Below, piece after piece: positions 1 through 9,915 of a stretch of 64,000 bases of DNA. The stretch lies in NCBI GenBank assembly GCA_949290785.1, contig CASETE010000013.1:3529-67528 (forward strand), written 5' to 3'. Under the pieces are notes generated by a model. The model ran no database searches. It saw only the letters and a program-made list of their open reading frames with translations, and had not been told where the DNA came from. Position 1 is the first letter of the stretch; each line of letters starts with the position of its first letter. The stretch comes from an uncultured Pseudomonadota bacterium (GTDB lineage: Bacteria; Pseudomonadota; Alphaproteobacteria; Rs-D84). Made by a program: the position numbers and the translations under genes.

Positions 1-2355
1 TTTTTGATAAAACAAGGATATCAACGCGCAATAGTTGATGATGAGTTATACGATTTGTCTGCCGTTCCGCCTTTGGATAAAAATAAAAAGCATACGATGT
101 TCGTAATCGTAGATAGGTTGCAGATGCCGGCTGCAGATGCGTCGGATTCCGATAAAGAAGAATTTCGTTCCAGAATATATTCTTCGTTTGAGGCTTCGTT
201 GCGATTGGTGCCGGGGTCTGTGTTGGTACGTCGCTTGGATACAAATGAGGACAGTTTGTATTCGCAAAATTATGCTTGCCCAGTCAGCGGTTTTACCGTG
301 CCGAAAATAGAACCTAGGTTGTTTTCATTTAATGCGCCTATGGGGGCGTGCAGTGCTTGTGACGGTTTGGGCGTACAGTTAAACATGTCGCCAGATTTGG
401 TTATACCAGATCCGTCAAAGTCTATATTGGATGGGGCAATTGCGCCTTGGTCGCGTGGTGGAATGCTTAGTCAGTTTGAACATTTGTTAGATGCTTTACA
501 TAAAAAATATAAAATACCTCTTTCTAAGCCATGGCATACTTTGACGCCTGAACAAAAAAATCTGATTTTATATGGAAGCGGCGATGAAGCCATAAAAATT
601 AATTGGAACGGTTTTGTTTATGAAAAGCCTTATGAAGGGGTCATTCCTAATATAGAACGGCGCTGGCGAGAATCGGAATCAGAGGCAATGCGCGCTGAAT
701 TGGCAAAATATCAGTCGGAAAAGCCGTGCCCGGTTTGTCATGGTAAGCGCTTGAATATTCAGGCTTTGTGCGTAAGGGTTAATAATAAAGATATCATGGA
801 TGTTTGTGATATGTCTGTTGATGATTCTTTGCGCTGGTTTACGAATTTACCAAACTGTTTATCACAAAAAGATAATGATATTGCAAAAATGATTTTGCGT
901 GAAATTACAAGCCGATTGCACTTCTTGCAAAACGTTGGGTTAGGGTATTTGACTTTATCAAGAATGGCTGGAACTTTATCTGGCGGGGAAGCGCAAAGAA
1001 TTAGACTGGCTTCTCAGATAGGCAGCGGGTTATCGGGCGTTCTGTACGTCTTGGACGAGCCTTCTATTGGTTTGCATCAAAGCGATAACGATAAATTACT
1101 GGATACGTTAAAAATGTTGCGTGATAAAGATAATACTGTAATTGTCGTTGAACACGACGAAGACGCGATGCGCGCAGCCGATTTCTTGGTAGATATAGGG
1201 CGGGGCGCAGGCGTTAACGGCGGAAATGTCGTTGTCGCAGGTAAGCCGGCAGATGTAATTAAATGCAAGGATTCTTTGACGGGTCAATATTTATCTGGGG
1301 CGCGCAAAATAGATGTTCCAAAAAAACGGCGCGCGGGTAACGGGCATATGATTTCTGTATGCGGTGCGTGTGAAAATAACTTAAAGAATATAAATGTAGA
1401 TTTTCCATTAGGTACGTTTATTGCTTTGACCGGCGTTTCCGGTTCTGGTAAGTCAACTTTGTTACTAGATACATTGTACCCCGCGTTGATGCGTGCTTTA
1501 TATAACTCTAAGCTAGAAGTCGGAAAGCATGATATCATTCGCGGTATGGAAAACGTGGACAAGGTCGTTGATATTGATCAGTCGCCCATTGGACGTACGC
1601 CACGCAGTAATCCTGCAACTTATACGGGCGTATTTACTAATATTCGCGATTTCTTTGCGGGGCTGCCAGAAGCAAAAGCACGCGGTTACACGTCTGGCAG
1701 ATTCTCGTTTAATGTAAAGGGTGGTCGTTGCGAGGCGTGTCAGGGTGACGGACAGATAAAAATAGAAATGAATTTCTTGGCCGATGTGTATGTAGAATGT
1801 GATAAGTGTCACGGTGCCCGATATAACGACGAAACCTTGGCTGTTAAATATAAAGGAAAGTCCATTGCAGATGTGTTGGATATGACTGTTGACGAAGCGT
1901 ATAGGTTCTTTATTAATGTTCCACAAATTGCCAGAAAGTTAGAGTTATTAAAGCGGGTAGGCCTAGATTATATTAAACTGGGGCAAAGTTCTTTGGATTT
2001 ATCCGGCGGCGAAGCGCAAAGAATTAAACTTTCAAAAGAACTGGCAGCACGCAGTACGGGGCAAACTATTTATATTTTAGACGAACCGACAACAGGTTTA
2101 CATTTTGAAGATATAAAAATGTTGTTATCTGTTCTTCACGAATTGGTAGACCAGGGAAATACCGTAATTGTGATTGAACATAACTTGGAAGTGATAAAAA
2201 CTGCTGACTGGATTATTGATTTGGGGCCTGCCGGTGGGGCAGGTGGCGGGCGCGTTATTGCAACTGGGACGCCCGAACAAATTGCCGATGTTCCGGAATC
2301 GCTTACAGGTAAATATTTAAAGAAGTATCTGGACAAACCGCAAAAGAAAAAATAA
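1..2355 (+). CDS. uvrA: UvrA excinuclease ABC subunit A, 5' end cut by the window edge
   Basis: The ORF is open to nt 1. It has two ABC modules (Walker A GVSGSGKST, two LSGGEAQR signatures, VLDEPS/ILDEPT Walker B) and CxxC zinc modules (CPVCHGKR; CEACQGDG..CDKCHG). Confidence 0.97.
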   Translation, partial: FLIKQGYQRAIVDDELYDLSAVPPLDKNKKHTMFVIVDRLQMPAADASDSDKEEFRSRIYSSFEASLRLVPGSVLVRRLDTNEDSLYSQNYACPVSGFTVPKIEPRLFSFNAPMGACSACDGLGVQLNMSPDLVIPDPSKSILDGAIAPWSRGGMLSQFEHLLDALHKKYKIPLSKPWHTLTPEQKNLILYGSGDEAIKINWNGFVYEKPYEGVIPNIERRWRESESEAMRAELAKYQSEKPCPVCHGKRLNIQALCVRVNNKDIMDVCDMSVDDSLRWFTNLPNCLSQKDNDIAKMILREITSRLHFLQNVGLGYLTLSRMAGTLSGGEAQRIRLASQIGSGLSGVLYVLDEPSIGLHQSDNDKLLDTLKMLRDKDNTVIVVEHDEDAMRAADFLVDIGRGAGVNGGNVVVAGKPADVIKCKDSLTGQYLSGARKIDVPKKRRAGNGHMISVCGACENNLKNINVDFPLGTFIALTGVSGSGKSTLLLDTLYPALMRALYNSKLEVGKHDIIRGMENVDKVVDIDQSPIGRTPRSNPATYTGVFTNIRDFFAGLPEAKARGYTSGRFSFNVKGGRCEACQGDGQIKIEMNFLADVYVECDKCHGARYNDETLAVKYKGKSIADVLDMTVDEAYRFFINVPQIARKLELLKRVGLDYIKLGQSSLDLSGGEAQRIKLSKELAARSTGQTIYILDEPTTGLHFEDIKMLLSVLHELVDQGNTVIVIEHNLEVIKTADWIIDLGPAGGAGGGRVIATGTPEQIADVPESLTGKYLKKYLDKPQKKK

Positions 2356-2372
2356 TATCATAATAAAGGAGT

Positions 2373-2882
2373 ATGAAAATGTTTGGATTTGGCAAAAAGA
2401 AAAAAGAAAAAATTAGTCCTATTGAAAACGAACAAATAACGGATAAAGAATTACAACAGTTGGAAGAAAAAATACCCAGCGGCATGAAAGAAACCGCGCA
2501 ACGTATGATGTCAGGTCAATTTGACATGAATGATATGTTGGCGCAGTTAAAACAAATTAAAAAAATGAGTAATTTTAGCGGATTGTTAAAAATGGTGCCC
2601 GGTATGTCTGGTGCGGTATCCGCTATGAAAGAAAAAATTAAAGACGGCAGTGTGGACGCGCAGATAAAAATATTAGAGGCTATGACCGCCGCTGAACGGG
2701 CCGAGCCGGAAAAAATATTTGCCAACGCAAAAGCAAGAATTGCAGAAACCGCAGGTTGTACGGTTCGCGACGTTGAACATATGATAAAGCAATATACTAA
2801 AATGCGCCAGCAGATGGCAATGATTCAAAAAATGGGCGGTATGGAAGCAGTTATGGAAAAAATGAGGAAGCAAGGAGTATAA
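2373..2882 (+). CDS. Stand-alone SRP54/Ffh M-domain-like protein (no NG GTPase domain)
   Basis: 169 aa. FDMNDMLAQLKQIKKM, KMVPGM, MTAAERAEPEKI, ARIAETAGCTVRDVEHMIKQY and a Met-rich tail resemble the Ffh M domain as remembered. AGGAG at 2367-2371 favours the second ATG (2379) as the true start. Confidence 0.7.
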   Translation: MKMFGFGKKKKEKISPIENEQITDKELQQLEEKIPSGMKETAQRMMSGQFDMNDMLAQLKQIKKMSNFSGLLKMVPGMSGAVSAMKEKIKDGSVDAQIKILEAMTAAERAEPEKIFANAKARIAETAGCTVRDVEHMIKQYTKMRQQMAMIQKMGGMEAVMEKMRKQGV

Positions 2883-2888
2883 TAAAAT

Positions 2889-3179
2889 ATGGGCCGACGA
2901 AGGTTGATAAACCTAAAAAATAGCGTAAAAAAATTATTAGATAAAAATCCTATCGGCATAGAAGCACCGTTTTCTTGTTACAGAAAGACAGACGATAACA
3001 AACGTCGCTTATTAGGGTTCGTTGTGGTTGTAAAATATAGGTATAGAGCGAATAAAGAACAGGTGTTTGTCGTCAAAAATCAATGCCCAGAAGATAGGAA
3101 GATTGCTTTAAGAAATGCTATTAATTTTTATAACTTGATTAAGGAGCAGATTTATAAGGATAATCAACATGAACATTAA
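2889..3179 (+). CDS. Small basic hypothetical protein, divergent member of a 3-gene paralogous set
   Basis: 96-aa ORF starting 6 nt after the previous stop. Its 3' end overlaps the next ATG by 11 nt. The LLGFVVVVKYRYRANKEQVF core resembles the strand-rich core of the next two genes. Confidence 0.55.
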   Translation: MGRRRLINLKNSVKKLLDKNPIGIEAPFSCYRKTDDNKRRLLGFVVVVKYRYRANKEQVFVVKNQCPEDRKIALRNAINFYNLIKEQIYKDNQHEH

Positions 3180-3444
3180 TTTTAAAAAATTATTTGATTG
3201 GGAAATTAAATGCGTTACAGAACCGTATCGCTTTGTTGATTTTGAAACGGGGGCAAAAGGCTTTAAGGTCAGGGTGCTTTACGTTCATCACGGTTGTAAA
3301 GACAAGTGTTTTGATACGAAAAATCAGCAATCGTGGGCTTGTTATTCGTCAGCGGAAGCGGCGGCTAAAGCATATTATCGTTGTATGATGGAAAAGTATT
3401 TGCATCAGCAAGAGAAAAAAGGGCAGAAAATATATGGTCGTTAA
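3169..3444 (+). CDS. Small hypothetical protein, paralogue 2 (possible AP2/integrase-type DNA-binding fold)
   Basis: 91 aa. It shares NFKK-FDW-IK-V-EP and G(F/Y)(K/Q)V-V-Y-HHG-K-K-F with the next gene. It overlaps both neighbours by 11 nt. Confidence 0.6.
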   Translation: MNINFKKLFDWEIKCVTEPYRFVDFETGAKGFKVRVLYVHHGCKDKCFDTKNQQSWACYSSAEAAAKAYYRCMMEKYLHQQEKKGQKIYGR

Positions 3445-3688
3445 CTTTAAAAAGATTTTTGATTGGTCTATTAAAAGCGTATCCGAGCCGGTGTACGTTT
3501 GGAATGGGGCTAATTATACTGGGTATCAGGTCGTTGTAGAATATAAACATCACGGTACGAAAAAGAAGTTTTTTTATTTAATGGATAAAAAATATAATTT
3601 TGGTAGATGGGGTAATGCCGGGTTCGTGGCAAGTGAATACGCGCAGAAAATGAAACAAAAGCAGAAAAATAGAGATAAAATAAGATAA
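3434..3688 (+). CDS. Small hypothetical protein, paralogue 3
   Basis: 84 aa. MVVNFKKIFDWSIKSVSEP...GYQVVVEYKHHGTKKKFF parallels the preceding gene. Its stop lies 2 nt before the rlmE ATG. Confidence 0.6.
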   Translation: MVVNFKKIFDWSIKSVSEPVYVWNGANYTGYQVVVEYKHHGTKKKFFYLMDKKYNFGRWGNAGFVASEYAQKMKQKQKNRDKIR

Positions 3689-3690
3689 AT

Positions 3691-4350
3691 ATGAAAATTC
3701 TAAATAAAAAAATTGCTGCAAAAAAATCTTCTGTTGCTTGGATTCAACGTCAGGCAAACGATCCTTATGTTGCGCGTGCGCACAAAGAAGGATATCGGGC
3801 GCGTGCCGTTTATAAACTGATTGAAATAAACGATAAATTCAAATTTTTAAAAAACGGGCAGGTTGTGGTAGATTTAGGCGCTGCACCAGGTTCGTGGACG
3901 CAATATGTAAAACGCGAATTTCCAAAGTCTAGGGTGTTTGCAATGGATTTGTTAGAAATAACACCCATACCCGACGTTGAATTTTATAAGGGGGATTTTA
4001 CAACAGACGAGGCGCTTGATTGGTTAGTTGGCAAACTTAATTTGCCCGAAGATGTAACAGAACATGGTACGGTTGATGTGGTGTTGTCAGATATGGCACC
4101 AAATACAGTTGGTCATAAAAAAACAGATCATTTACGACAGATGGTGTTGCTGGAATATGCGTTTGATTTTGCGAAACGTGCGCTAAAACCGGGCGGTACA
4201 TTCGTTGCAAAGTCTTTTACCGGCGGAACAACGGGCGATTTATTAAAGCAAATTAAGGACTGTTTTGAATCTGTGCATCATATAAAGCCTCCTGCTTCTC
4301 GCAAAGATTCTGTAGAGATGTTTATTGTCGCAATGGGATACAAAAGATAA
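3691..4350 (+). CDS. rlmE: 23S rRNA (uridine2552-2'-O)-methyltransferase RlmE/FtsJ
   Basis: WIQRQANDPYV..A.KEGYRARAVYKLIEI and the SAM motif VVDLGAAPGSWTQY; length 219 aa. Confidence 0.93.
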   Translation: MKILNKKIAAKKSSVAWIQRQANDPYVARAHKEGYRARAVYKLIEINDKFKFLKNGQVVVDLGAAPGSWTQYVKREFPKSRVFAMDLLEITPIPDVEFYKGDFTTDEALDWLVGKLNLPEDVTEHGTVDVVLSDMAPNTVGHKKTDHLRQMVLLEYAFDFAKRALKPGGTFVAKSFTGGTTGDLLKQIKDCFESVHHIKPPASRKDSVEMFIVAMGYKR

Positions 4351-4412: not shown

Positions 4413-4718
4413 ATGAAAAAAGTATTTTACTGTCTATGGTTTTGTGTTGTGTGCATTTTGGGTTTGTTCCAGCCTGCTTATTGTGATTTGACTTCCAAGG
4501 CTTATGTCGGATATGTTGTCGCCGCCAAAGAAGACATATCAAATAAAGTAACTAATTTTGAGGGTGCAAACGCAACAGATACAAAGTATCCCAGTGCGCT
4601 GGCAGTAAAAACGGAACTTGGCACCAAGGTTGATACCGGTGCAGACGCCATCCAAACAATGCAAGGTAAATATACTGTGTCTGGTACTTTATACGTTCCA
4701 ACACCGCCCTTGCCATAA
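4413..4718 (+). CDS. Small secreted protein (101 aa), possible partner of the giant repeat protein
   Basis: The ATG at 4413 gives the signal peptide MKKVFYCLWFCVVCILGLFQPAYC. A KYPSALAVKTELGTKVD motif is echoed in the N-terminus of the next protein. The listed TTG at 4389 is less likely. Confidence 0.6.
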   Translation: MKKVFYCLWFCVVCILGLFQPAYCDLTSKAYVGYVVAAKEDISNKVTNFEGANATDTKYPSALAVKTELGTKVDTGADAIQTMQGKYTVSGTLYVPTPPLP

Positions 4719-4749
4719 GTATAGGTATTTTTGTAATATTATAACGAAG

Positions 4750-7700
4750 ATGTTAAAACGAATCGTTCGTAGTTTTTTTATTATGTTATTTTTACCGTGT
4801 GCTTGTTGGGGGGCGGTGGCGGTTAATGTGGACTATATTCATTCTTTGATCAGGCGCGATTGGGGTGTTGATATTCCTTATTATCCAAGCGCGGTAAATC
4901 AAATTGCGAATGTAGAGTATTTGTTAAAGGTGGTTGATAAAACAAACGCCTTGTTAAACGGTACCGCTACGACAAGTTACGGTACAGACGAACATTACGC
5001 TACTAAGCAGGCGGTTGACACGGTTGCGACAATTGATGCGGTGGACAGGTTAATCGTCATAGAACCAGAATTTTTCGTAAAAACCACATCGGATACAACG
5101 AATTTTTCTTTCATAATAAGCGCGGCAGGTATTTATTCTATTGATTGGGGAAATTATAAAGAAAGAATAGTTAAAACAGATACAACGCCAATCATATATA
5201 GCCACGATTATAATACCGCAGGTACATATACAATCGGCATTGGTGGTCAGGCAAATAATTATTCAACAGACAGCACGACGGCTGCGGTATCTTTTAAAGC
5301 CAATACGAACATTGCGGGTATTTCGGGCAGTTTGGGCGCTATATTCGGTACATTAGAAAACGGTGCACAGCCTGTTTTCTATCAAACGTTTGGTGGTTGT
5401 ACAAATTTATCAAGTACCATACCAGAAACTTTATTTTCTGGCGTCAGCGGTACACCGATTAAGTATATGTTTTATGGTTTATTTGAGGGTTGTACCAAGT
5501 TAACGGGCGAAATTCCGGCAAATTTATTCTCTGGTTTAAGGGGCGAACCTGGGAAAGCAATGTTTCAAAATACGTTTAGCGAATGCGCTTCGCTATCGGG
5601 GGCGATACCGGAAAGATTGTTTGGTGGAATATCGGGTGCGCCGGCTTCGCATATGTTTTCACAAACTTTTTATAATTGTTCTGGTTTGACTGGTCCCATA
5701 CCCGAAAATTTGTTTGGTTTAATAAGCGGTAATCCTGCGCCTTATATGTTTTATGCGACTTTTAATGGGTGCTCTAAGTTGAACGGTGAAATTCCTGGGG
5801 CTTTGTTTGCAGGGGTAAACGGCGCTCCTGCGGAGTTTATGTTTCAAGGACTTTTTGCTAATTGTAATAGGTTAACTGGCAGTATACCGGAAACGTTATT
5901 TGCTGGCGTTCAGGGGGCGCCCGCAGAGTCAATGTTTCGTAGCACTTTTTATAATTGTTCTTCGCTGTCTGGCGGTTTGTCGGCGCGGCTGTTTGCTGGT
6001 ATTTCTGGCACGCCCGCCAAGGATATGTATTATCAGACGTTTTACGGTTGTTCCGGATTGACAGAGAATTTGCCGAGTAATGTATTCGGCTCTATCGTCG
6101 GAAGACCGGCAGAGGGTATGTATTACAGCACGTTTTATAATTGTATAAGGCTAACAGGTAAAATACCCCAAGGGTTGTTCGGGGACTTGACAGACACGCC
6201 TGCAACAAATATGTTCAGCCAGACTTTTTATAATTGTAACAAACTAGATGGATTGTCTGCGCGTATGCCAGATGGCAGATTCTTGTACGATGTTTACGGG
6301 CGCGATTTGGATTACGGGTTGAACATGTATCGTAACGCGACAGGATTGCAAGAGTATCCTTTTATACCAGTAAAGTGGGGCGGCTTGGGCGTAGAACCAA
6401 AATTCACGGTAACAACGACGTCAGATACGAAAACTTTTTCTTTCAAAATCAGTGCCCAAGGGGTGTTCTATATAGATTGGGGTGACGGTAACTATGAGAC
6501 AATCAATAAAAGCGATACTAACGATACGACATATACCCATGTATATGATGCTGCAGGCAGTTATGAAATCGGAATCGCGGGAACAGCCAGAAATTATTCG
6601 GAAAACGAACAGTTCGCCGCAATAAGTTTTTATGCAAATCAAAATGTTGCAGGTATTTCGGGCAGTTTAGGTGCTATATTTGGCACGTTATCAGACGGCT
6701 TGCAGCCACGTTTTAGGTCTACGTTTGGTGGGTGTACGAATTTAACCGGAACAATACCAGAAGAATTATTCAGTGGTATTACGGGACAACCAACCAGTTT
6801 CATGTTCACCGGATTATTTGATTCGTGTTCAAGGTTAACCGGCACAATACCGGAAAGGCTGTTTTCAGGTTTGTCGGGTGTTCCTACGGAATCTTTGTTC
6901 GCGATAACGTTTCGTGCGTGTTCTTCTTTGGAGGGCTCTATACCGGAAAGGTTGTTCAGCGGCATATCCGGAAAGCCTACGTTAGATTTATTCAGGTCTA
7001 CATTTGAAAGTTGTACTGGGTTGTCGGGCTCAATACCAGCACGGTTGTTTTCGGGCATTTCTGGTGCGCCCGCAGAGAATATGTTTATGGGGACGTTTTT
7101 TGATTGCTCTGGCTTGACGGGTTCTATACCCGAAGGGCTATTTGGTGGGATTTATGGTCAACCGGCACCGGGAATGTTTATGGTTACTTTTGAAAGATGC
7201 GCAAGGTTACAAAATCAAATTCCAGAACGATTGTTCGCCGGTATATCCGGTGCGCCGGCGCCAAGAATGTTTCGCGGAACGTTTTCACAATGTGGAAAAC
7301 TAACAGGGCCTTTGCCTGACAACTTGTTTTCTGGTATATCGGGCGCGCCCGCAGAAGATATGTTTATGGGGACGTTTTATAGTGATATTGGCATTGACGG
7401 TGATATTCCCGTTGGATTTTTCGGAAATCTAACTTCTGCACCCGCGTCAGGCATGTTTGTTGAAACGTTTATGAATTGTAATCGTTTAAGCGGTCCTTCT
7501 GCGCGTACATCAAACGGCGATTTCTTGTATGACATTTACGGACGCGATTCGGATTACGGGCTGGATATGTATAAGGACGCAGTTAATCTGGACGATTATG
7601 AATTTATTCCGAAAAAGTGGGGCGGGTTGGGGCGCGTGCCGGCAGAGTTCGTCGTTACAACAACGCCAGACACAACGGAGTTTTCGGTTAATATTGCTGC

Positions 7701-9915
7701 CAAGGGCGATTTCACTATTGATTGGGGTGACGGCACCGTAGACGAAATAACGCAAACCGTCGTTACAAAAAAGACTTATTCGCATACGTACAGCGCGGCG
7801 GGCAGTTATTCTGTTGGTTTGTCGGGACAGGCAACAGCATATACGACATCTAATACAAGCGTGGTAAGTTTTTCAGAATCCACAAGTGTGGCGGGTATAT
7901 CGGGCAGTTTGGGCGCGATATTCGGCACTTTATCAGACGGTTCGCAACCAAGGTTTTATAGGACGTTTTATAACCACACAAATTTACATGGTGAAATACC
8001 CGCAACGTTATTTGACGGGATAACGGGGCAACCTGTAACGGCAATGTTTTATAGTACTTTTGAAGGTTGTACGGGGTTAAGCGGGGAAATCCCATCGGGA
8101 TTGTTTGCTGGTTTGGACGGGACGCCGACCATACAATTGTTTTTTCATACTTTTGAGGGTTGCACAGGTTTAAGTGGGAATATACCATCGGGGTTATTTG
8201 CGGGAATACAAGGATTGCCGGCTGCGAATATGTTTGCGGGGACCTTTCTAAATTGCACTGGGTTGAACGGAACAATACCGTCGGGTTTGTTTTCCGGTAT
8301 TTCTGGTGCGCCAGCAGCGAACATGTTTAATTCTACGTTTGCCGGTTGCACGGGTTTATCTGGTGCGATACCGTCAACATTGTTTTCCGGCATATCTGGT
8401 GCGCCAGCCACGAACATGTTTACAGGGACTTTTTCGGGGTGCAGTGGTTTAACGTCAATACCGTCAAACCTGTTTGCAGGAATTCAAGGTGCCCCGGCAT
8501 CATATATGTTCAAGGAAACATTCGCGAATTGTACGGGGCTGACGACAATTCCGGGGGCGTTGTTTGCAGGGATTCAGGGTGCGCCAAATACTTATATGTT
8601 TCAAGGGACTTTTTCTGGGTGCAGTAATTTGATTGCACTGCCGGATGACTTATTTGCCGGCATTTCTGGGGCGGGCAAGGGGTATATGTATGACGCAACA
8701 TTTAAAAATTGTACAGGGTTGACGGGAACCATACCTGTGGGATATTTTGGTGATTTAACAGAAACCAAGGCAACGTATATGTTCAGGGAAACTTTTTTGA
8801 ATTGCGCCGGTTTGACGGGTGATTCTGCGCGTTTACTGGACGGTCGGTATTTATATGATGTGTATGGACGTACTGGGACGTACGGGCGAAATATGTATCA
8901 GGGCGCGACGGGTTTGTACGATTATCCATTTATACCGACAGCCTGGGGTGGTTTAGGGCTGGAACCAGAGTTTTATATAACAACAACCCCGGACACAAGC
9001 GTATTTTCAATTTATTTAGGTGCGGCCGGTAATTTCACGATTAACTGGGGTGACGGTAATACAGAAAACATAACCAAGACAGATACCGCCAGCACAAGTT
9101 ATTCGCACAACTATGATACAGCGGGCGAATATTTGATAACGTTATCTGGGAAAGCCACAGAATATTCTGCGCCAAGTTCAACGACACCCGGTGTAATTAC
9201 TTTTGGATATAGTTCTAAAATTGCGGATATTGAAGGCAGTTTGGGACAGATATTTAGTACGTTGGCAGATGGTTCGCAACCAAAATTTGCGAATACGTTT
9301 GCTTATGCTAGTAATTTAACAGGGACGATACCACAATATTTATTTCATAACATTCGTGGCGAACCTGTACCATATATGTTTTATAATACTTTTTCGGGGT
9401 GCAGTGGTTTAACTGGCAGTATACCATCAGATTTATTTGCAGGAATCCAGGGTGCGCCCGCAGAAAGTATGTTTGCCAGCACATTTCGTGGCTGCAGTGG
9501 TTTAACGGGCAGTATACCATCAGATTTATTTGCAGGAATCCAGGGCGCACCCGCAGAAGGTATGTTTTTTTCTACATTTGGGGCCTGTACGGGTTTAACT
9601 TCGTTACCAGCGGGGTTGTTTGATGGTATTTCCGGTGATTGTGCAACAGGCATGTATGCAGGATGTTTTAGTGGATGTACGGGGTTAAGCGGACAAATCC
9701 CGTTGGGCTTTTTCGGTGATTTAACAGAGGTTGGTGCAAATGGTGCATTTGAAGGCACTTTTATGCGTTGTGGTCCCGGTTTAACAGGACCTTCGGCGAG
9801 ATTACCAGACGGTCGGTATTTGTATAATGTCTATGATGGCGGAACTGGCGCCGGAATGTATAGAGATGATACCGGGTTAACTGATTATAGCAGCATACCA
9901 GCTAATTGGAAGTAA
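4750..9915 (+). CDS. Giant secreted modular surface protein: 4 x (PKD-like head + 31-aa LRR/DUF285-like repeats)
   Basis: The ATG at 4750 gives the Sec signal peptide MLKRIVRSFFIMLFLPCACWGAVA. Length is 1721 aa. Four super-modules each carry IDWGDG...Y.H.Y..AG.Y and 6-10 copies of C.GLTG.IP..LF.GI.GAP...MF..TF. Confidence 0.85.
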   Translation: MLKRIVRSFFIMLFLPCACWGAVAVNVDYIHSLIRRDWGVDIPYYPSAVNQIANVEYLLKVVDKTNALLNGTATTSYGTDEHYATKQAVDTVATIDAVDRLIVIEPEFFVKTTSDTTNFSFIISAAGIYSIDWGNYKERIVKTDTTPIIYSHDYNTAGTYTIGIGGQANNYSTDSTTAAVSFKANTNIAGISGSLGAIFGTLENGAQPVFYQTFGGCTNLSSTIPETLFSGVSGTPIKYMFYGLFEGCTKLTGEIPANLFSGLRGEPGKAMFQNTFSECASLSGAIPERLFGGISGAPASHMFSQTFYNCSGLTGPIPENLFGLISGNPAPYMFYATFNGCSKLNGEIPGALFAGVNGAPAEFMFQGLFANCNRLTGSIPETLFAGVQGAPAESMFRSTFYNCSSLSGGLSARLFAGISGTPAKDMYYQTFYGCSGLTENLPSNVFGSIVGRPAEGMYYSTFYNCIRLTGKIPQGLFGDLTDTPATNMFSQTFYNCNKLDGLSARMPDGRFLYDVYGRDLDYGLNMYRNATGLQEYPFIPVKWGGLGVEPKFTVTTTSDTKTFSFKISAQGVFYIDWGDGNYETINKSDTNDTTYTHVYDAAGSYEIGIAGTARNYSENEQFAAISFYANQNVAGISGSLGAIFGTLSDGLQPRFRSTFGGCTNLTGTIPEELFSGITGQPTSFMFTGLFDSCSRLTGTIPERLFSGLSGVPTESLFAITFRACSSLEGSIPERLFSGISGKPTLDLFRSTFESCTGLSGSIPARLFSGISGAPAENMFMGTFFDCSGLTGSIPEGLFGGIYGQPAPGMFMVTFERCARLQNQIPERLFAGISGAPAPRMFRGTFSQCGKLTGPLPDNLFSGISGAPAEDMFMGTFYSDIGIDGDIPVGFFGNLTSAPASGMFVETFMNCNRLSGPSARTSNGDFLYDIYGRDSDYGLDMYKDAVNLDDYEFIPKKWGGLGRVPAEFVVTTTPDTTEFSVNIAAKGDFTIDWGDGTVDEITQTVVTKKTYSHTYSAAGSYSVGLSGQATAYTTSNTSVVSFSESTSVAGISGSLGAIFGTLSDGSQPRFYRTFYNHTNLHGEIPATLFDGITGQPVTAMFYSTFEGCTGLSGEIPSGLFAGLDGTPTIQLFFHTFEGCTGLSGNIPSGLFAGIQGLPAANMFAGTFLNCTGLNGTIPSGLFSGISGAPAANMFNSTFAGCTGLSGAIPSTLFSGISGAPATNMFTGTFSGCSGLTSIPSNLFAGIQGAPASYMFKETFANCTGLTTIPGALFAGIQGAPNTYMFQGTFSGCSNLIALPDDLFAGISGAGKGYMYDATFKNCTGLTGTIPVGYFGDLTETKATYMFRETFLNCAGLTGDSARLLDGRYLYDVYGRTGTYGRNMYQGATGLYDYPFIPTAWGGLGLEPEFYITTTPDTSVFSIYLGAAGNFTINWGDGNTENITKTDTASTSYSHNYDTAGEYLITLSGKATEYSAPSSTTPGVITFGYSSKIADIEGSLGQIFSTLADGSQPKFANTFAYASNLTGTIPQYLFHNIRGEPVPYMFYNTFSGCSGLTGSIPSDLFAGIQGAPAESMFASTFRGCSGLTGSIPSDLFAGIQGAPAEGMFFSTFGACTGLTSLPAGLFDGISGDCATGMYAGCFSGCTGLSGQIPLGFFGDLTEVGANGAFEGTFMRCGPGLTGPSARLPDGRYLYNVYDGGTGAGMYRDDTGLTDYSSIPANWK
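5062..6393 (+). repeat. Super-module 1 of the giant protein gene (about 444 codons, 10 short repeats)
   Basis: Starts EPEFFVKTTSDTTNFSF and ends FIPVKWGGLGV. Confidence 0.8.
6394..7638 (+). repeat. Super-module 2 (about 415 codons, about 9 short repeats)
   Basis: Starts EPKFTVTTTSDTKTFSF and ends FIPKKWGGLGRV. Confidence 0.8.
7639..8961 (+). repeat. Super-module 3 (about 441 codons, about 10 short repeats)
   Basis: Starts PAEFVVTTTPDTTEFSV and ends FIPTAWGGLGL. Confidence 0.8.
8962..9912 (+). repeat. Super-module 4 (about 317 codons, about 6 short repeats)
   Basis: Starts EPEFYITTTPDTSVFSI and ends SSIPANWK. Confidence 0.8.
9400..9567 (+). repeat. Near-identical 93-bp tandem duplication inside module 4
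   Basis: tgcagtggtttaac(t/g)ggcagtataccatcagatttatttgcaggaatccaggg... occurs at 9400 and 9493. I count about 4 mismatches in 75 nt. Confidence 0.85.

Follow-up and report, generated by a model that had tools for sequence, protein, structure and literature searches.

What does the cargo-binding module of the SRP (signal recognition particle) do in a bacterium that keeps this module and nothing else of the particle? The question is raised by one locus in a 64,000-nucleotide (nt) stretch of DNA from an uncultured alphaproteobacterium of the order Rs-D84 (assembly GCA_949290785.1, contig CASETE010000013.1, positions 3,529 to 67,528 of the forward strand; this whole stretch is called the window below). 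An open reading frame (ORF) at 2373-2882 on the plus strand, 169 amino acids (aa) long, begins here 17 nt past the stop codon (2353-2355) of uvrA. SRP (Ffh with 4.5S RNA) and its receptor FtsY are usually treated as universally conserved and serve as core marker genes. An earlier interpretation of the locus made without database searches (the sequence-only reading) described the ORF as a stand-alone M domain of Ffh without the N and G (NG) domains of the GTPase, and suggested that it could be a decoy or chaperone-like paralogue or one half of a split ffh.

We show here that the ORF is the ffh orthologue, reduced in place to the linker between the G and M domains (GM linker) and the M domain. 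The truncation happened once, in an ancestor that Candidatus Enterousia shares with small sister genera of Rs-D84, at least four and probably five in number. Candidatus Enterousia is an uncultured gut alphaproteobacterium of this order with genomes of about 0.9 Mb (PMC12306168). The protein is Ffh by descent; by its N domain, G domain, model score and RNA motifs it is not Ffh. As the best explanation of the whole we consider it moderately probable that ffh was truncated in place and that binding of hydrophobic signals was retained in a GTPase-free form.

Domain content and predicted fold

The Pfam profile SRP_SPB (PF02978) matched the ORF over its full length (model positions 1-91 of 91) at residues 49-148, with an E-value of 8.7e-23 and a score of 81 bits against a cutoff of 27 (82.3 bits in the genome-wide scan). 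It was the only Pfam domain found in the ORF; the N domain (PF02881) and the G domain (PF00448) were unmatched. The ffh model TIGR00959 was matched over positions 314-427 of 428 only, with 84.9 bits, below its cutoff of 473.2. A significant full-length SRP_SPB match and a TIGR00959 match restricted to the last quarter of the model bear out the stand-alone M domain. A phmmer search of the PDB aligned residues 27-152 to residues 304-431 of Escherichia coli Ffh (2XXA, 5AKA and 1DUL; E about 1e-15), gap-free from residue 50, where the E. coli number equals the residue number plus 279; the alignment with E. coli Ffh that the sequence-only reading had made by eye is therefore correct. In public records the protein is called 'hypothetical' or carries a domain name assigned automatically.

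Translation probably begins at the second ATG (2379), which gives a truncated ffh gene of 167 aa at 2379-2882 (+) with a product beginning MFGFGKKK. This start is favoured because a Shine-Dalgarno sequence AAGGAG, read from the DNA, lies 7 nt upstream (2366-2371, +), because 76 of 80 orthologues start with MFGFGKKK and because database copies are 166-169 aa long. Residue numbers below are those of the 169-aa frame, and the parts of the gene are all on the plus strand.

An AlphaFold2 model, with an alignment of 39 sequences as input, had a mean predicted local distance difference test (pLDDT) score of 76.7, a predicted template modelling (pTM) score of 0.63 and pLDDT values of 89-98 in the core. 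Residues 1-23 are disordered in the model, including the aromatic and basic N-terminal motif MFGFGKKKK (2379-2405) that is conserved among orthologues. Two helices (24-32 and 36-47) make up the GM linker (residues 24-47; 2442-2513), which aligns with E. coli Ffh 304-327. The M domain proper, with finger loop and Met-rich groove, occupies the Pfam match at 2517-2816 and is followed by a Met-rich C-terminal helix (156-166) and tail (residues 156-169; 2838-2879).

In structural comparisons the model matched SRP54/Ffh M domains, signal-bound and ribosome-bound, with Z scores of 11-13.6, the value of 13.6 being reached by 3ndb_B and by 4xco_D (1.7 Å over 93 residues); 1dul_A gave a Z score of 10.4 at 1.1 Å, and unrelated folds gave Z scores below 5. 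The ribosome-bound chain 5gad_i aligned over model residues 31-169, and the C-terminal helix and tail aligned with the C-terminal part of ribosome-bound E. coli Ffh, to residue 445-447 (5gad, 5gag, 5nco). The predicted structure thus has the fold of an M domain: a helical bundle, a finger loop and a hydrophobic groove.

Truncation of ffh in place and loss of its partners

Genera of the same family that retain the NG domains show where the short gene comes from. In the genera g20-g24, uvrA is followed by full-length ffh and then by rlmE, and in the genus g17 and the family f4 ffh lies directly before rlmE. The short M gene stands between the same two genes in 77-79 of 80 Enterousia loci (with uvrA on its 5' side in 79 of the 80), and also in g11, g14, g15 and g19, so that the synteny of uvrA, M domain and rlmE raised in the sequence-only reading is real and conserved. 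A paralogue or decoy, as that reading had offered, this gene is not: the genome holds no full-length ffh of which it could be the paralogue, and the M gene is the orthologue, standing where ffh stood ancestrally.

Full-length ffh of the nearest genera starts with ATGTTTGAY, in the genome G263 35 nt past the uvrA stop codon and behind the Shine-Dalgarno sequence aaagga; the short gene starts with ATGTTTGGA, 23 nt past the uvrA stop codon and behind aaaggag. This common start context just past uvrA indicates that the native ffh start was kept. Over the GM linker and M domain the protein shares 38-49% identity with the full-length Ffh proteins of the nearest Rs-D84 genera. By hand count, Gly3 and the FD.ND motif are 32 residues apart in the form with the shortest linker (g19), compared with 33 residues from GMGD to FD.ND in full-length Ffh, which suggests a join from Met-Phe to about GMGD at the end of the G domain. 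Met-Phe would probably be the native Ffh start, and GFG in the N-terminal motif may be a relic of GMGD. Most likely, a single internal in-frame deletion took out the N and G domains and spared the native start.

The N-terminal motif takes the forms MFGFGKKK, MFGLGKKK, MFNFGKKT or MAWFGRSKK in the other NG-less genera and, together with FANAK[TAV]RI[AS]E, is common to all NG-less genera examined. MFGFGKKK resembles both the N-termini of sister FtsY proteins (MFGKIGSK and others) and those of Ffh (MFESLSKK) and is too short to decide between them; on the grounds of locus and start context we favour the Ffh start as its source. The sister-family FtsY proteins themselves (L128-L137) are short, about 290-320 aa, and have no A domain, and most carry amphipathic N-termini of the MF.K.G.K type.

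A maximum likelihood tree (LG+G4) was built from the C-terminal part of UvrA and RlmE (633 columns, 22 taxa); it leaves out g18 as well as g17 and family f4, for which the fetched stretch held no uvrA. All NG-less taxa were set apart by one split (ultrafast-bootstrap support, 99%), adjoining the NG-containing genus g22 under midpoint rooting, which points to one truncation event. In a wider search for short M-domain proteins, covering 1.84 billion proteins, the single match resembling another NG-less form was P0129, from a 2.6-kb ENA metagenome contig: it is 138 aa long and 49% identical, starts with MGLFGKKKE and has the degraded motif AMT..ER..P..IFNAQKERIAAD. Its sequence suggests that the NG-less family reaches beyond the sampled genera. 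Most of the other short matches have a canonical RNA motif and start inside the linker; we rejected them as NG-less forms, and they are probably fragments of normal Ffh.

In two NG-containing relatives ffh appears to be interrupted. In G052 (C66:1037-2048) different frames hold the NG part (329 aa) and the M part (152 aa), and in G256 (C8:15460-16428) one in-frame TAG lies within the NG match. These interruptions may be sequencing errors or an early stage of ffh decay or splitting.

The assembly searched for the missing partners has 999,534 bp in 23 contigs and is 97.4% complete. Its single SRP_SPB match is the M-only ORF. The genome gave no match to PF00448, as either Ffh-NG or FtsY, and none to the ftsY model TIGR00064. 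A tblastn search with ten full-length Ffh proteins of sister families found the M part only (38-44% identity, from query residue ~300), and with sister FtsY proteins the best matches were P-loop segments of 37 residues with E-values of 0.03 or worse. An order-specific hidden Markov model (HMM) of the Ffh NG domains, run unfiltered on all 10,873 six-frame segments of this genome, reached an E-value of 0.037 at best, and the closed circular chromosome OZ007020.1 (958,618 bp) yielded no SRP GTPase. The statement that no NG domain is encoded upstream or downstream thus holds for the flanks of the ORF and extends to the rest of the genome. Weak tblastn matches to the Ffh N domain near the window end (contig positions 67185-67511) lie inside secA and are due to chance.

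Across the order we surveyed 259 Rs-D84 genomes of at least 85% completeness and detected the M domain in 255 of them. PF00448 was found in none of 207 Enterousia genomes, nor in this one, nor in five small genera of the same family (g11, 0/2; g14, 0/4; g15, 0/1; g18, 0/1; g19, 0/1), making 0 of 217 genomes in the six genera of the NG-less clade; it was present in all 22 genomes of the other nine genera of the family and in 19 of 20 genomes of other families. Stop-to-stop frames around the M domain measured 154-273 aa (about 82-90 bits) in the listed NG-less genomes, and intact NG-containing genes 436-561 aa (about 93-117 bits). Weak PF00448 matches within the genus (E about 2e-4, ORFs of 454-481 aa) were ruled out as SRP GTPases; they belong to the double GTPase Der/EngA. 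Close relatives of the M-only protein are encoded in more than 500 species-level genomes of the GTDB collection.

The bacterial SRP RNA model of Rfam, RF00169, had no match in this genome. It matched 13 of 16 genomes of other families and, of five genomes from the closest NG-containing genera, one only and below threshold (26 bits, gathering threshold 40). That single match is a genuine 4.5S RNA, though shortened to about 79 nt, and its domain-IV core reads GGUCAGGG-GGAA-CCAGCAGCC. Shortened 4.5S RNAs of about 75-80 nt and about 60% GC occur in NG-containing genera of the family (L151:1501-1579, minus strand; L153:1472-1548, plus strand), and their being missed by RF00169 is a blind spot for SRP RNA annotation in Rs-D84. 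As proof of RNA loss RF00169 is unreliable in this family, and we replaced it by a lineage covariance model, R1, trained on two members of the family plus six RNAs from other families, and by a scan for the core motif KCAGG..GNRA..AGCAGC. The core motif was present in seven of seven positive-control loci and was found neither in this whole genome nor in the closed Enterousia genome. R1 matched 16 of 17 NG-containing genomes of the family and none of 104 NG-less ones (Enterousia, 0/96, plus this genome; g11, 0/2; g14, 0/3; g15, 0/1; g18, 0/1). Core-pattern matches in the genomes G263 and G267 were rejected as SRP RNA, R1 having placed the real RNA elsewhere. The two counts for R1, taken with the lack of PF00448 in the same clade, show the RNA, the NG domains and the receptor disappearing together. 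One half of a split ffh, the other option of the sequence-only reading, does not fit these results: no NG-only gene, FtsY or SRP RNA was found in this genome, in the closed relative or in the 217 genomes of the clade.

The shortened gene is a working one, judged by its pattern of substitutions. Its ORF is intact, at 163-179 aa, in all 80 species-level loci. The median ratio of nonsynonymous to synonymous substitution rates (dN/dS; Nei-Gojobori method, 80 loci, synonymous sites near saturation) was 0.065 for the M gene, 0.071 for rlmE and 0.042 for uvrA, and the protein sequences are 78-94% identical to the copy in this genome, comparable to UvrA and RlmE. These values show that the M-only gene is under strong purifying selection.

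We compared 87 short forms with 19 full-length relatives residue by residue. The short forms keep 42 of the 51 hydrophobic positions conserved in the full-length relatives, as the sequence-only reading had supposed for the groove, and what was lost lies mostly where the G and M domains used to join; among them, conservation reaches 100% in many columns of the M domain, and their Met content is 11.2% compared with 9.6%. The RNA-binding motifs (residues 103-128; 2679-2756) are degraded: the region reads AMT..ERAEP.KIFANAKARIAETAG here and SMT..ER.NP.....SRK.RIAKGSG in the relatives. E. coli S397-R398-K399-R400-R401 aligns to N118-A119-K120-A121-R122, in agreement with the replacement of SRKRR by NAKA noted in the sequence-only reading. 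Three residues invariant in the 19 full-length relatives are changed in nearly all 87 short forms, namely S103A, R119A and G126T (E. coli S382, R398 and G405); a fourth invariant one is replaced in the short set by G66S (E. coli G345), and K125E, at a position that is K in 63% of the full-length relatives (E. coli A404), is changed as well. R398 and the GSG turn of E. coli Ffh are reported to contact 4.5S RNA in the 1DUL work. The net charge of the M domain is +5.0 in the short forms and +8.9 in the full-length ones. The alignments show that invariant RNA-contacting residues were lost and that the Met-rich groove, the finger loop and the C-terminal helix were kept; the degraded motif and the lost charge fit a real loss of SRP RNA.

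Proposed function and known parallels

From the conserved groove and the predicted fold we propose that the M-only protein, needing neither GTP nor RNA, would still bind hydrophobic signal or transmembrane segments of nascent or newly made proteins, and that it would help the bound segments reach the intact SecYEG, SecA and YidC machinery. In the version that we favour, though as less probable than not, its M domain and C-terminal helix would place it at the exit of the ribosomal tunnel, like the mitoribosomal protein mL105 (MAP67); MFGFGKKK would add a contact with the membrane or the ribosome, and a simple tether would replace the GTPase-timed shuttle. By this analogy the protein would be a constitutive tunnel-exit factor, a permanent tether between the ribosome, the nascent chain and the membrane or insertase, which we put forward tentatively. 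The further thought that the MFGFGKKK tip, with two aromatics beside a lysine run on a flexible linker, makes the membrane or rRNA contact is speculation.

The cell offers such a protein both clients and machinery. A crude count of hydrophobic windows gave about 66 proteins with at least three hydrophobic segments and 27 with at least six, which means that clients for co-translational insertion exist; genomes with and without NG domains alike encode SecB, trigger factor and a single copy each of SecY, SecA and YidC. A role at the ribosomal exit is plausible in view of two published cases. The isolated M domain of E. coli Ffh co-migrates with ribosomes (50S and 70S) and selectively restricts the expression of membrane proteins, an effect left unchanged by co-expressed 4.5S RNA (PMC2921155). 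In mitochondria, the NG-less M-domain protein mL105/MAP67 is located at the tunnel exit of the mitoribosome; its C-terminal helix lies inside the tunnel, and it touches the insertase (PMC7326499, PMC9576764).

The closest parallel is in fact mL105/MAP67 (chain AT of 6Z1P in Tetrahymena; 9I05 and 9G6K in Toxoplasma; also Polytomella), which like the M-only protein is an Ffh M domain without N and G domains, encoded as a separate protein. It comes from a system of alphaproteobacterial descent, is proposed to have lost N and G through an internal deletion, functions without SRP RNA and is essential in the two apicomplexans tested (PMC7326499, PMC9576764, PMC8321541), which implies that an M-only protein can be important. 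Our predicted model matched its orthologues with Z scores of 10.3 (9i05_AI), 9.5 (6z1p_AT) and 8.0 (9g6k_Le), and no mL105 chain was among the PDB sequence matches at E <= 0.001. The two proteins differ in setting: MAP67 is eukaryotic, nuclear-encoded, mitoribosomal and probably derived from a duplicate of mitochondrial Ffh (mtFfh), whereas the Enterousia protein is bacterial and the only ffh copy; and MAP67 is a component of the mitoribosome, whereas ribosome association of the Enterousia protein would follow by analogy. Since the bacterial truncation maps inside one family at the ffh locus and there is no significant sequence match, it is a separate and recent event within one Rs-D84 family, and the likeness to MAP67/mL105 is convergent.

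Ordinary bacterial Ffh (TIGR00959; PF02881, PF00448 and PF02978) is the orthologue, with the same locus, start and M-domain fold, but it has N and G domains, intact RNA motifs and FtsY and 4.5S RNA as partners. In cpSRP54 of seed plants and mtFfh of some protists, loss of the SRP RNA goes with mutations in both RNA motifs of the M domain (PMC8321541), the same correlation as in the M-only clade. These organellar proteins, however, keep a functional NG part and an FtsY-type receptor, and GTPase activity is essential for cpSRP54 function (PMC11427828); in the M-only clade both GTPases are gone. Bacteria without Ffh and FtsY are also found among organelle-like insect endosymbionts: the loss in Carsonella and Portiera is implied by a report that lists ffh and ftsY for Evansia and not for its relatives (PMC4122945). 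Their genomes are several-fold smaller and host-dependent, whereas Enterousia has a full Sec/YidC system, a large secretome, about 900 genes and an M domain under selection, and we found no report of an M-only remnant in insect endosymbionts. In the literature searched, which does not cover all journals, we found no paper on a bacterial M-only Ffh, and the Enterousia papers that we found do not mention SRP.

Several points weigh against our interpretation. Signal binding is read here from conserved residues and a predicted fold, in which the finger-loop region has middling pLDDT values of 66-79. The N domain is the main dock of Ffh on uL23/uL29, and with its loss binding to the ribosome is not assured. 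A compensating basic C-terminal tail of YidC, of the Oxa1/YidC2 type, was not found; the YidC C-termini are short in NG-less and NG-containing genomes. Finally, the genomes are metagenome-assembled genomes (MAGs) of uncultured organisms, so that absence means 'not found in those searched', though the closed genomes agree.

The chaperone-like function that the sequence-only reading had mentioned is still a live functional reading, and a cytosolic holdase resembling SecB or cpSRP is about as likely as a factor at the ribosomal exit. Such a protein would shield hydrophobic segments after translation and hand them to SecA, SecYEG or YidC off the ribosome. It fits the sequence data equally well: the groove and its Met richness are conserved, the N-domain ribosome dock is lost, and SecA, SecB and YidC are all there; E. 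coli SRP itself can insert small membrane proteins after translation (PMC7549839). Against a holdase it counts that the C-terminal helix, which is conserved, is the counterpart of the part by which Ffh and mL105 contact the tunnel, that the M domain of E. coli, when isolated, occurs on ribosomes, and that SecB and trigger factor already cover chaperoning. The same E. coli experiments would suit a governor of translation, a protein that damps or pauses membrane-protein synthesis on cytosolic ribosomes as quality control rather than targeting, because the overexpressed M domain lowered membrane-protein expression with mRNA level and protein stability unchanged (PMC2921155). We regard this as improbable: the effect appeared on overexpression only, a pure inhibitor without a membrane release step would be costly, and nothing in the sequence speaks specifically for it.

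There are two further explanations. Its partners could be hidden, with an NG GTPase, a receptor or an RNA that is too divergent to be detected, lies on DNA missing from the assembly or comes from a host or partner cell. These bacteria are uncultured and probably depend on partners (PMC12306168), and standard models can be blind here, as shown by the SRP RNAs that RF00169 missed in four of five NG-containing relatives; but R1 and the core motif restore the sensitivity and still find nothing in the NG-less genomes, the unfiltered NG HMM and the closed genomes are negative, and the altered RNA motif with its lost charge is what real RNA loss would leave. We therefore consider hidden partners very unlikely. 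We give hardly any credence to the other explanation, a functionless leftover of ffh on its way to loss. The disappearance of the NG domains, FtsY and SRP RNA and the decay of the RNA-binding motif would suit a relic, but the gene is intact in every one of the 80 loci and across six genera, its dN/dS is like that of its housekeeping neighbours, many of its columns are invariant, and a useless gene would not have survived in genomes so strongly reduced. To the extent that sequences can tell, the relic is refuted. The reading we retain is that of a truncated ffh whose product would still bind hydrophobic segments, at the ribosomal exit or in the cytosol.

More than 200 species-level genomes in at least five, probably six, genera that are common in human and farm-animal guts thus show no trace of either SRP GTPase or of the RNA in our searches. 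The clade keeps the cargo-binding module alone, under selection as strong as that on housekeeping genes, in cells that still have a full Sec/YidC system and encode dozens of polytopic membrane proteins among about 900 genes. It offers a natural experiment on what the M domain does alone and on membrane-protein targeting without a GTPase cycle. As an independent bacterial parallel to the origin of mL105/MAP67, it makes testable a step so far only inferred for early mitochondria. If the protein does act at the tunnel exit, a living bacterial lineage would have independently replayed the mitochondrial step of giving up SRP, and co-translational membrane targeting could run without an SRP GTPase in a cell with normal Sec and YidC. 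On the practical side, the absence of ffh and ftsY markers from these MAGs is not to be read as incompleteness.

Neighbouring genes

At 1-2355 (+) lies the 3' part of uvrA, recognised by the Pfam profiles UvrA_DNA-bind, UvrA_inter and ABC_tran and running off the window start; uvrA likewise lies 5' of full-length ffh in g20-g24. On the other side, rlmE (3691-4350, +) encodes an FtsJ-type 23S rRNA U2552 2'-O-methyltransferase (Pfam FtsJ, 1.8e-57; TIGR00438, NF008390), a gene also found 3' of full-length ffh in sister genera and family f4. A scan for promoters and terminators was uninformative (11 sites, 9.8 expected).

Between the M gene and rlmE lies a variable, rapidly evolving insert of three overlapping paralogous mini-ORFs of 96, 91 and 84 aa (2889-3688, +), without a Pfam or NCBIfam match. 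They were ruled out as obligate partners of the M gene: across the 80 loci their copy number varies from 0 to 3 and their identity is only 26-50%, and in several species they are absent and rlmE directly follows the M gene. By eye, the second and third show a beta-strand block and then a helix of the 'AAAKAY' type, recalling AP2-like DNA-binding domains, with no profile support. Just past rlmE, at 4618-9915, there is an ORF of 1765 aa, of which the first 400 residues were matched in only three of the 80 related loci (44-98% identity), so that it is a giant protein of high variability. The window's far end, from about 61842 onward (contig positions 65370-66515 and beyond), holds secA.

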